Positions 51,001 through 54,000 of a stretch of DNA of 64,000 nt are shown piece after piece; position 1 is the stretch's first letter, and each line of letters starts with the position of its first letter. The stretch lies in IMG/VR virus record IMGVR_UViG_3300027809_000005; one strand, given 5' to 3'. A program made the position numbers. This DNA comes from a virus.

Positions 51001-54000
51001 GAGGTAACGCCTTCTTTAATTTCATCCCTACGTCCATAAGATGCATTAACGTATGGCAGTTGGGACAAATTACGGCTAGGTTAGTAGAACGGTTGTCTTT
51101 ACTTAATTGTCTACCGTCCCAGAATAAATAGCCTAAGGCAGCTGCCTCCTGTAATAACTTAGTGATGTCTTGCTTCTTTCTTACTGCTGCTCGGATTTTG
51201 TTCTCGACTGCTTGGTGTTCCTGATAGTCAATGTGGTGTACCTCTACGATATGATAACCGCAAAGTTCACACCGATCTCCGTATGCTTGTAGTCCCGCTT
51301 CTCTGTATTCCGATGCCATCTTGGTGTCTCTCCCTTACTATATTAGTAGAGCCCCGAAGGACTCTGTAATAATATAGCTTTAGGCTATCTTTCCTTAATG
51401 ACTTCATCCTTGGTAATTTTATGCAAAGGATTCCATAAATCTGTAAACAATTCATAACGTTTGGTAATCTTCACACCGAAGTCTTCATGCTGCTCATCCC
51501 ATCCTTCTGATAGGTGGTCAAAGATATCTGCTACCATGTCTTCAATAGACCAGTTCTCAGTAGTAATATCGATCATCATTCCCGGGAATAGCTCTGTATA
51601 CCAGTAGCGCACCTCGTTTAAATTTGTAGAGCAGCTTAAGCGGTACACGCAATCCATAAGGATGGTTTTCATTTCACGTTCTCTTCGAGTAAGTCCGTAC
51701 ATATGTACGTAGTCTAAGTTGACAATCATTTCATCTAGCGTAGGCTCTCCTGCTGGTTCTTCGATTGGTTCAAATCCGTAGTCGTACTCTTCTACTCCAG
51801 CAATCATTTCAATAACCAGCTGCTCTTGTCTAGGGATTAAACGGCTTTTATTATAAGGTAAGCCTAGTTCGTCTGCTCGAATAGCCATATGACGTTTACC
51901 GTCTGTAACAACTGCCATGTACTGTACTTTAATTCTTTCAGCATTTTTTCTAACGTACGACTTATTCTCGATGTGCTCTAGCAGTTCTGTAGGAAGTGTA
52001 ACGCAATCATCCTCAATTGCTGCGTATAAATCCTCTGTTAAGAACAATAAAGGAGTCTGATCTAATAATTCTACATTGTCAGTCTTTCTCCATTCGTGAA
52101 ACGCTGGTACTGTATACCCTTTCCCAAAACCGTGTGTGAAGTTAACCCAAACATCATGAATATATAACATTCTTCTTCATCCCTTCAAAGTTTAATTTTT
52201 TCTTATAAACGTTAAAGCTGTATCTGTAGCCCTTATCCTTTCCAGTCTGGTGGAAGAAACGGCTCCAGTTCTCTTTATCTATTACAGGGAAAAATGCGTC
52301 TGCTTCGAATGTTTGGTCAATTTCAGTTAAGTATAGTCTATTAGCGTAAGGTAAGCATTGCTTATAAATGCTTTCTCCCCCTATAATCATAAGTTCCACT
52401 TCGTTCCTAAACTCATATAGTACATCTGCCAGACTGTTCCGAACTAATACGTCCGGGTGCGGGTCATAGTTTTTGTCTGTAGTGATGACTACATTAAGTC
52501 TACCTCCTAGAGGCTTTCCAATGCTTTCATATGTCTTGCGTCCCATAATGACTGTTTTATTCTTCGTATGCCTCTTGAACCACTTAAAGTCATCCGGGAG
52601 GTGCCAGTTTAACTTGTTATCCTTACCTAGACCGTTGCTCTTGTCTATCGCTGCTATTAAAGATATATACATAGCTTACTTGTTCCACAAGTCGTCTAGG
52701 TGATCTATATAGTCATTAATCTCTCTAACGGACATATTGTCTATATCCGCTGGAGCTATACAAAACTCTTCTTCAGAGTTTCTTATAAATTCTCTAGGTG
52801 TTTCTTTATTCGTAGCTTCTTCAATTAGGTCACAGATAGGGTCATCTAACTGACTTTTAACAATAATCGTATCCATTGATGTTCCTCCTAAAATTTTTAG
52901 TTTGTCTCAGAAATCAGGACAGACATAATGTTGTCTAACTGTTCGTATAGTGTATTAAGGCTACCGTCATTGACGATGTTATAGTCTACATCGAACGTAT
53001 CAACGTGTATCTCAGTCTCTGCTTCAAAGTTTTTATCGTTGCTATTGTCACCTTTTGCTTTAGCTCGTTCCTTACGCATATCTAGTGGAGCCTGTAACCG
53101 GATAATCGTATAGCCCTCTTCCTTCAGTTTGGCAAATTCATTAGGTTGACGGAGATCGGTAATTAAAGGCATGTATGTGATATCCTCGTGTGTAATGTTG
53201 TAATTAGCTGCAACTTGTCTGATTCTCTCTACTTGAGCTAAGCAGAGGTCAATCCAGTAGGTCGCTCCTTCCGATTTACGTTTACCTTGCCCATAGGTTT
53301 GATAACCTCCTACAGGCTTAGGTACTCGTGGGACATCCGGGTTCTCAAGGTGGTAATACTCTTTTAGTTTGTCACCAAAAGCAAAGGCAATCATATGATA
53401 CTGTTCAACTAAGTATCTCTCCGTTGTTGTTTTTCCTGAACGCATACCGCCACAAAGGGCTACCTTAACTTCTCTCATTCACTGTTCCTCCTAGTTTTTA
53501 GTTACCTACTGAAAGCTTACCTTTGATTCCCGGATGTGGTTCGTATCCTACAAGCTCAAGGTCTTCGAACGTATAGTCTTCAATACGTTCCTTTACAGTC
53601 TTGACAATAAGCTTAGGCATTTTCTTGATTGGGCGTGAAATCTGCTCTTTAATCTGGTTTATATGGTTTGTATAAATATGCGCGTCACCAAACGTGATAA
53701 TTAAACGTCCCACCTTTAAACCTAGCATTGTAGCAATCAAGTGAACCAGTAACGCGTACGAAGCGATATTGAACGGTAAGCCTAAGAAAATGTCACAAGA
53801 TCGTTGATACATTTTGCAGCTGAGCTCTCCGTCTGCTACATATAGCTGGAAAAAGGTGTGACAAGCTGGTAATGTAATCTCACATAGTACACTAGGGTTA
53901 TAGGCAGTTACCATCATTCGTCTAGAGTCTGGGTTATTCTTGACTTGGTCAATGATTTCTGCAATCTGGTCTACTGGGTTACCCCATTCTGCACCCCAGT

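Follow-up and report, generated by a model that had tools for sequence, protein, structure and literature searches.

In Bacillus subtilis, the YjbA protein was recognised in 2025 as an adaptor of the ClpC unfoldase and renamed MdfA (Massoni et al. 2025; Riley et al. 2025). It binds the N-terminal domain of ClpC (ClpC-N) and induces both ClpC oligomerisation and ATPase activity. The host mdfA gene is sigma-F-dependent, and depletion of 117 proteins in the forespore needs MdfA, ∼90% of which are metabolic enzymes. Among the remainder of the 117 are sigma-F, sigma-E, sigma-B, RsbW, Hpf, FtsZ, and DivIVA. Vegetative expression of MdfA alone causes filamentation, with no Z-rings, and lysis, and both effects need ClpC and ClpP. 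Here we describe a homologue of MdfA encoded in a 64,000-nucleotide stretch of viral DNA (the window; IMG/VR virus record IMGVR_UViG_3300027809_000005), and we argue from its sequence and setting that the phage probably uses this copy in ordinary infection to turn the host protease on the cell.

At the contact between MdfA and ClpC, acidic MdfA side chains pair with basic ClpC residues. The pairs E53-H79, E116-K85, and E161-K12 were validated by swapping charges and assaying two-hybrid interaction, sporulation, and toxicity, the MdfA site on ClpC is distinct from the MecA and phospho-arginine sites, and MdfA is reported to be absent outside Bacillaceae (Massoni et al. 2025, PMC11960690). One phage protein is known to act on the same protease: Gp53 of SPO1 is a ClpC binder in B. 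subtilis that stimulates the ATPase of ClpC, alters the specificity of ClpCP, and competes with the adaptors MecA and McsB; its expression by itself is toxic (Mulvenna et al., bioRxiv 10.1101/569657). Phages also carry sporulation-type sigma factors, which alter host dormancy and reduce spore yield (Schwartz et al. 2022, mSphere).

Viral members of the MdfA family have been mentioned once, as ‘a few in viruses’, in the legend of a Pfam sunburst figure (Riley et al. 2025). Literature searches on DUF3603, on MdfA and ClpC together with phage, and on yjbA together with phage or sporulation gave nothing further of relevance, and two surveys of phage sporulation genes, one of them Schwartz et al. 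2022, contain no yjbA, mdfA, or ClpC. While the family and its viral members are already present in databases, analysis or discussion of a phage homologue is new to the searched literature. New here are the viral context, the predicted sigma-A-type regulation, the coupling to the gene for dihydrofolate reductase (DHFR), a diverged C domain, and the placement of the phage proteins in a separate clade.

A phage-encoded member of the MdfA family

The gene occupies positions 51385-52170 on the minus strand as an uninterrupted open reading frame (ORF) of 261 amino acids (aa), starting with ATG at 52170-52168 and ending with TAG; its product is referred to as P0001. The start codon is supported by homology, because residue 1 of P0001 pairs with residue 1 of bacterial MdfA (MLYIHDVWVN versus MLFLHDVWVN). 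In Pfam, P0001 matches DUF3603 (PF12227) with 170.4 bits (cut-off 23.7, E 4.5e-50, profile positions 1-207 of 214), which is the only family reported for it. It is a member of phrog_7257 in PHROGs (E 2e-83; function unknown), and no NCBIfam model matches it. A phmmer search of PDB sequences returned 8b3s_A as the sole match (E 9.3e-58, residues 1-248); this chain is YjbA (MdfA) of B. subtilis, from a co-crystal with ClpC-N. An earlier, sequence-only reading of the window, which gave no strand for the gene, had proposed homology to YjbA/MdfA and suggested a DUF3603 search as one check. The profile and PDB matches put the homology far beyond chance, and every motif listed in that reading (HDVWVN, FHEWRK.D.VELLDQ.PLL, KSRLIPRQEQLV, GLTR.ER, and YWYTE) occurs in P0001 and lines up with bacterial MdfA. 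Its account of MdfA as a forespore ClpCP adaptor that drives degradation of metabolic enzymes likewise agrees with the literature on the 117 depleted proteins.

MdfA is built from a beta-rich N domain (helices, a beta hairpin, and a small beta barrel) that a flexible linker joins to a helical bundle at the C terminus, and the AlphaFold2 model of P0001 has this two-domain architecture. The model was computed from 41 homologues, in an alignment that held search-derived proteins only and no proteins from annotated phage records, and has a mean predicted local distance difference test score (pLDDT) of 90.4 and a predicted template modelling score (pTM) of 0.81. The N domain spans residues ∼1-135 and the C-terminal bundle ∼145-253, with strands placed within 2-110, helices within 145-260, and lower confidence at ∼131-150, in the linker. 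Foldseek identified 8b3s_A as the single significant match in the PDB (E 3e-24, template modelling scores 0.79/0.85, root-mean-square deviation 3.0, 249 columns, 42% identity); beyond it, nothing in the PDB scored below E 0.06. P0001 belongs to the DUF3603/YjbA (MdfA) family and has the MdfA fold.

All three acidic residues that contact ClpC are kept in the alignments of P0001, as E53, E116, and E164, the last being the equivalent of MdfA E161. In a family set of 130 sequences the E161 equivalent is invariant (130/130); among the 59 phage-side sequences of this set, E53 is retained in 41 and position 116 is acidic in 44. On the host side, ClpC residues Q11, K12, H79, and K85 are identical in B. 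velezensis, Priestia megaterium, and B. cereus, which represent three candidate host genera. The N domain of P0001, which holds two of the three contacts, is 56% identical to that of B. velezensis MdfA. None of five related phages encodes ClpP, so that any proteolysis must use the host protease and a phage-encoded ClpP partner is ruled out. Action of the phage protein on host ClpCP is plausible, because the contact acids are kept, their partners in ClpC are identical, relatives lack ClpP, and Gp53 provides a precedent.

Conservation and descent of the gene

The window is 87% identical in DNA sequence to phage f2b1 (Herelleviridae, Bastillevirinae) and on this evidence is Herelleviridae/Bastillevirinae phage DNA; less closely related to it are Goe8, Eldridge, Moonbeam, and Mater, which are myophages of Bacillus (Priestia) megaterium. 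Phage f2b1 (MN940411.1) was deposited with the host ‘Staphylococcus aureus ZH 2’, yet it belongs to Bastillevirinae, carries a poly-gamma-glutamate hydrolase gene, and has nearest relatives that infect Bacillus megaterium, which makes the host label look doubtful.

The MdfA-like gene had at first been regarded as a singular find. It is instead conserved, since tblastn located it in 91 deposited phage records, 90 of which are named Bacillus phages, and viral homologues are covered by the figure legend of Riley et al. 2025. We examined 14 phage loci, f2b1 included, all from Bastillevirinae. In 13 of them the gene lies directly 3' of the DHFR gene, in a block that encodes a nucleotidyltransferase, thymidylate synthase (ThyA), deoxynucleoside monophosphate (dNMP) kinase, and DHFR. 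These 13 represent Goettingenvirus, Eldridgevirus, Siophivirus, Jeonjuvirus, Nitunavirus, Grisebachstrassevirus, Agatevirus, and Tsarbombavirus, together with several records without a genus; adding Shalavirus and the groups of Moonbeam and Mater brings the family to 11 named genera. Shbh1 (Shalavirus) lacks DHFR and keeps the MdfA-like gene after that for dNMP kinase. Compared to f2b1, the ratio of non-synonymous to synonymous substitution rates (dN/dS) is 0.14 for the MdfA-like gene, 0.09 for DHFR, 0.07 for ThyA, and 0.13 for dNMP kinase, and the MdfA-like gene is under purifying selection.

An exhaustive search of 1.84 billion cluster representatives yielded 186 clusters at 50% identity, and a related-locus search with closer alignment yielded 10 IMG/VR loci. 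In an unrooted IQ-TREE phylogeny, all 15 proteins from isolated phages and their metagenomic relatives are split from all named bacterial MdfA by a branch with 100/100 support, and a quick tree of 130 rows gives the same split with a support of 99. The split is what one would expect from a single ancient exchange of the gene between the Bastillevirinae lineage and bacteria, for which a tree without root or outgroup gives no direction. Recent capture from a host and a decaying passenger gene are both ruled out by the dN/dS of 0.14, the conserved synteny, and the separate clade.

Several long-branch metagenomic DUF3603 genes form a second mobile lineage, which lies on the bacterial side of the tree and occurs in phage-like or prophage-like contexts. 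On three metagenomic and IMG/VR contigs of 148, 63, and 60 kb (L121:5001-5753, L122:5001-5747, and L117:3977-4732, respectively), the DUF3603 gene is found a few small ORFs downstream of a module of DUF4379, DndB, an MrpR-type regulator, and a divergent HTH_3 repressor; a lysis/lysogeny control region of the SPbeta-like kind is arranged in this way. A SASP gene is also present on L121. Another homologue (L109:676-1431) adjoins YorF and AAA_24 genes, and one more (L108:220-969) overlaps a dCMP deaminase gene by 8 nucleotides (nt), which is another link to nucleotide metabolism. The MrpR-linked lineage was found in no isolated phage record of the collection, and its place on the bacterial side of the tree rules out one viral origin for all mobile copies.

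Transcription signals and the surrounding operon

The only exact TTGACA-N16-18-TATAMT site in the window lies on the minus strand at 55388-55416, and the same site is present in f2b1. It reads TTGACA-17-TATACT, matches the sigma-A consensus at 11 of 12 positions, has an A-rich upstream element, and is the predicted start of the operon that ends in the MdfA-like gene. A terminator scan placed an intrinsic-terminator-like hairpin with a T-run at 56049-56070 (minus strand), which would close the preceding transcription unit, and called nothing terminator-like on the minus strand from the promoter down to the stop of the MdfA-like gene (51385). No sigma-F/G-type motif was found on the minus strand at 52100-55600 in a regular-expression scan with consensus patterns for these sigma factors. 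Because the promoter is sigma-A-like and sigma-F/G motifs are lacking, the gene is predicted to be expressed in vegetative infected cells, in dependence on host sigma-A. Forespore-specific, sigma-F-dependent expression from the chromosome is thus a trait of cellular MdfA that the phage gene does not share; it defines the cellular role and not the protein family.

In 9 of the 14 relatives a TTGACA/T-N17-18-TATACT promoter (TAGACT in Eldridge) is situated directly before the DHFR gene, 562-570 nt ahead of the DUF3603 start, and in phage Grass an annotated terminator (L006:2352-2366) parts the ThyA/dNMP-kinase block from DHFR-DUF3603. The DHFR and DUF3603 genes therefore form a dedicated bicistronic unit in most genera, and the pair, not the whole nucleotide operon, is the conserved unit. 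Elsewhere in the window, ∼22 near-consensus promoters of the form TTGACT-N17/18-(TG)-TATACT/TATAAT are crowded into 9 kb of the plus strand (38700-47800), a region with 58 promoter-like sites versus 38 expected that looks like an SPO1-style array of early or host-takeover genes. The MdfA operon promoter has its TATACT -10 element in common with these ∼22 promoters of the TTGACT type.

All genes of the operon are on the minus strand. Behind the promoter, the first gene is an 88-aa Cys-rich ORF (55109-55375), taken from the ORF list, whose position matches that of a small f2b1 gene. It is followed by genes for a nucleotidyltransferase (54373-55116, 247 aa; phrog_388, E 2e-25, with relatives annotated as nucleotidyltransferase), ThyA (53498-54376, 292 aa; PF00303, E 3.8e-98), and dNMP kinase (52897-53478, 193 aa; phrog_139, E 1.4e-40; PF21448, E 2e-8). 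Next come a small conserved phage protein of 66 aa and unknown function (52676-52876; phrog_4072, E 7e-25) and DHFR (52154-52672, 172 aa; PF00186, E 6.4e-54). The sequence-only reading had placed the MdfA-like gene in a nucleotide-metabolism operon with its start overlapping the folA stop, and both statements hold. Direct reading of the sequence gives an overlap of 17 nt (52154-52170) and not the 4-nt ATGA arrangement, the MdfA-like ATG (52170-52168) being 14 nt upstream of the DHFR TGA (52156-52154). A Shine-Dalgarno-like AAGGGA lies within the end of the DHFR gene. Overlaps of 11-17 nt are annotated at the same junction in f2b1, Goe8, Mawwa, 000TH009, P59, and BSP38.

Downstream of the MdfA-like gene, 20 nt past the TAG stop, the sequence contains a 7-bp stem with a TTCG loop and no T-run (51348-51365, minus strand), which the terminator scan did not call and which may be an RNA-stability or a weak termination element. 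The next gene (50990-51319, minus strand, 109 aa) is HNH endonuclease-like (phrog_8048, E 1e-6, and a weak PF01844 match), and HNH is annotated in f2b1 and Eldridge. In f2b1 (L001:4788-5075), Goe8, Eldridge, and P59, an extra ORF of ∼90-105 aa separates the DUF3603 gene from the next gene, which is the HNH gene in f2b1 and Eldridge. The window lacks this ORF and has a 65-nt spacer (51320-51384) with only the TTCG-loop hairpin. Further along, a 204-aa ORF at 49513-50127 (minus strand) occupies the slot where f2b1, Goe8, and many other relatives have an annotated poly-gamma-glutamate hydrolase gene, which fits a host with a poly-gamma-glutamate capsule. At 34758-36359 on the plus strand, an ORF of 533 aa matches SigE (E 9e-52) and SigK (E 5e-47) in its N-terminal 210 aa, below the equivalog cut-offs, and continues into a C-terminal extension of ∼320 aa without an assigned family.

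Possible roles in infection and comparison with known systems

We favour a reading in which P0001 is an early-expressed binder and activator of ClpC-N which redirects host ClpCP against host proteins, and assign it a probability of roughly 0.55. The gene, as the last of a nucleotide-metabolism operon, would be transcribed by host sigma-A RNA polymerase early in vegetative infection, and its translation would be coupled to that of DHFR. The protein would then dock on host ClpC-N through E53-H79, E116-K85, and E164-K12 and, like MdfA, drive oligomerisation and ATPase activity; on this model we infer activation rather than inhibition. ClpCP so redirected or deregulated might attack enzymes of central metabolism, FtsZ/DivIVA, and stress or sporulation sigma factors; the host would then cease to grow and divide, and resources would become available to the phage. 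The client range is probably unlike that of host MdfA, because the C-terminal bundle is only 31% identical to that of B. velezensis MdfA compared to 56% for the N domain. Three roles had been suggested from the sequence: stripping of host enzymes during takeover, a dominant-negative action that keeps the forespore metabolically active, and shielding of the phage's own enzymes. Stripping of host proteins at takeover fits best, because the sole promoter is sigma-A-like and no sigma-F/G motif was found, and the dominant-negative role in the forespore fits less well.

Several points weigh against this reading. Bacterial members share an invariant acidic loop at residues 12-20, FEGEENGYN, whose counterpart in P0001 is FTHGFGKGYT, and together with the low identity of the C-terminal bundle this means that ClpC activation or client delivery could differ or be lost. 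In some phage lineages position 53 is Q or P, and position 116 is Y or A. MdfA alone did not promote degradation of casein in vitro. AlphaFold-Multimer does not reproduce the native MdfA-ClpC interface (PMC11960690), so that docking would not settle whether P0001 binds ClpC, and the temporal class of the promoter is inferred solely from its match to the consensus.

The same divergence, with docking residues kept while the acidic loop and the C domain have changed, would also suit a blocker or decoy that occupies ClpC-N without productive delivery and thereby shields phage proteins or shuts down host adaptor pathways (MecA, McsB/phospho-arginine, or ClpC-dependent defence). Such a role could draw on the casein result for MdfA itself and on SPO1 Gp53, a competitor of MecA and McsB under which casein is degraded more slowly. 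One would not, however, expect simple competition, because the MdfA surface on ClpC differs from the MecA and phospho-arginine sites. Moreover, an MdfA-like pose has been modelled to clash with the M domain, MdfA activates ClpC, and the domain with two of the three contacts is still 56% identical to the host protein; we regard a decoy as unlikely. Manipulation of sporulation seems to us somewhat less probable again. Alongside the phage's own sporulation-type sigma factors, the protein could lower sigma-F/sigma-E activity to abort sporulation or could impose or speed up a forespore-type shutdown that safely entraps the phage genome. MdfA does dampen sigma-F-dependent expression, with sigma-F and sigma-E levels rising in its absence; phage sporulation-type sigma factors reduce spore yield, and a SigE/K-like factor (E 9e-52) is encoded in the same window. 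Yet no promoter other than the sigma-A-type one could be recognised, forespores have low sigma-A activity, the gene keeps company with DHFR and ThyA and not with sigma genes, and the phage family is kept across the 11 named genera regardless of whether a sporulation-type sigma factor is reported.

The position of the gene raises a further explanation, namely that P0001 acts independently of ClpC as a scaffold or regulator of the phage DHFR, ThyA, and dNMP kinase, which would account for both the place after DHFR and the coupling. The adjacency of DHFR and DUF3603 in 13 of 14 loci, many with a promoter of their own for the pair, is in line with this, as is the metagenomic homologue that overlaps a dCMP deaminase gene. 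Gene order is, however, generally conserved in the subfamily, so that adjacency is weak evidence; Shbh1 keeps the gene without DHFR, and the prophage-like lineage has it beside the MrpR/HTH module, away from any genes of nucleotide metabolism. All 130 sequences, furthermore, have the same residue at the contact with ClpC K12, and we consider a nucleotide-metabolism partner very improbable.

Activation of ClpCP by the phage protein in vegetative cells would, if true, be a second and independently evolved phage route to hijacking ClpC after SPO1 Gp53. ClpC-N would then stand out as a weak point of Bacillus in general, at the very surface at which, on ClpC1, several anti-mycobacterial cyclic peptides are aimed. 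A protease adaptor would also join the sporulation genes co-opted by phages, which raises the question of the direction of transfer between phage and host. The phage homologues, a large and diverse set in which ClpC-docking residues are kept and the C domain and acidic loop have diverged, amount to a mutational series made by nature with which docking could be told apart from client selection, and orthologues in the tractable B. subtilis phages Goe3, Grass, SBSphiJ, and phiNIT1 make the idea directly testable. A bolder and more doubtful proposal is that capture of the forespore ‘metabolic demolition’ switch is routine among Bacillus phages: the phage protein would truly activate ClpCP, would impose a forespore-like proteome teardown on vegetative cells, and would be needed for efficient infection. 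Two Herelleviridae subfamilies would on this view have converged on ClpC with unrelated proteins, the SPO1-like phages with Gp53 and Bastillevirinae with MdfA-like proteins. The cellular adaptor may then be a domesticated phage takeover gene and not the source of one, because the deepest and most diverse branches of the family come from phage or prophage settings, and the clades of cellular MdfA are shallow and confined to Bacillaceae and close relatives.

Among described proteins, B. subtilis MdfA is the closest to P0001, which is homologous to it over its full length at ∼42-44% identity, with the same two-domain fold, the three acidic ClpC contacts, and the invariant motifs GLTRxE, KSRLIPRQE, and YWYTE. 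Unlike MdfA, which is encoded by the chromosome behind a sigma-F promoter, P0001 comes from a virulent phage, and the DHFR/ThyA operon that contains its gene has a sigma-A-type promoter. It also differs in its diverged C domain, its replaced acidic loop, a linker that is 3 aa longer, and its membership of the separate, 100/100-supported clade. MecA/YpbH and McsB resemble it as obligate activators that bind the ClpC N domain and set substrate choice, but are unrelated to P0001 in fold (PF12227 being its only Pfam match) and bind different surfaces of ClpC-N. Phage sporulation-type sigma factors are comparable as a further class of sporulation genes found in Bacillus myophages of this sort (Eldridge, Goe3), with one encoded in the window itself, but they are transcription factors and not protease adaptors.

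SPO1 Gp53 is likewise a Herelleviridae phage protein of similar size (221 aa), and its mechanism is the one proposed for P0001; in contrast to MdfA, which uses another ClpC surface, Gp53 competes with MecA. Homology between the two phage proteins is ruled out by BLASTP, which detects no similarity (E 16), and Gp53 has no DUF3603 match. No Gp53 is encoded in the window (best tblastn E 0.96), and no DUF3603 gene was found in SPO1. Gp53 is present in 20 phage records, all of Bacillus subtilis phages and led by SPO1 (Okubovirus) and its close relatives, and none of these 20 is among the best 60 of the 91 DUF3603 records. Two subfamilies of Herelleviridae thus seem, from these searches, to carry different candidate ClpC-directed proteins.

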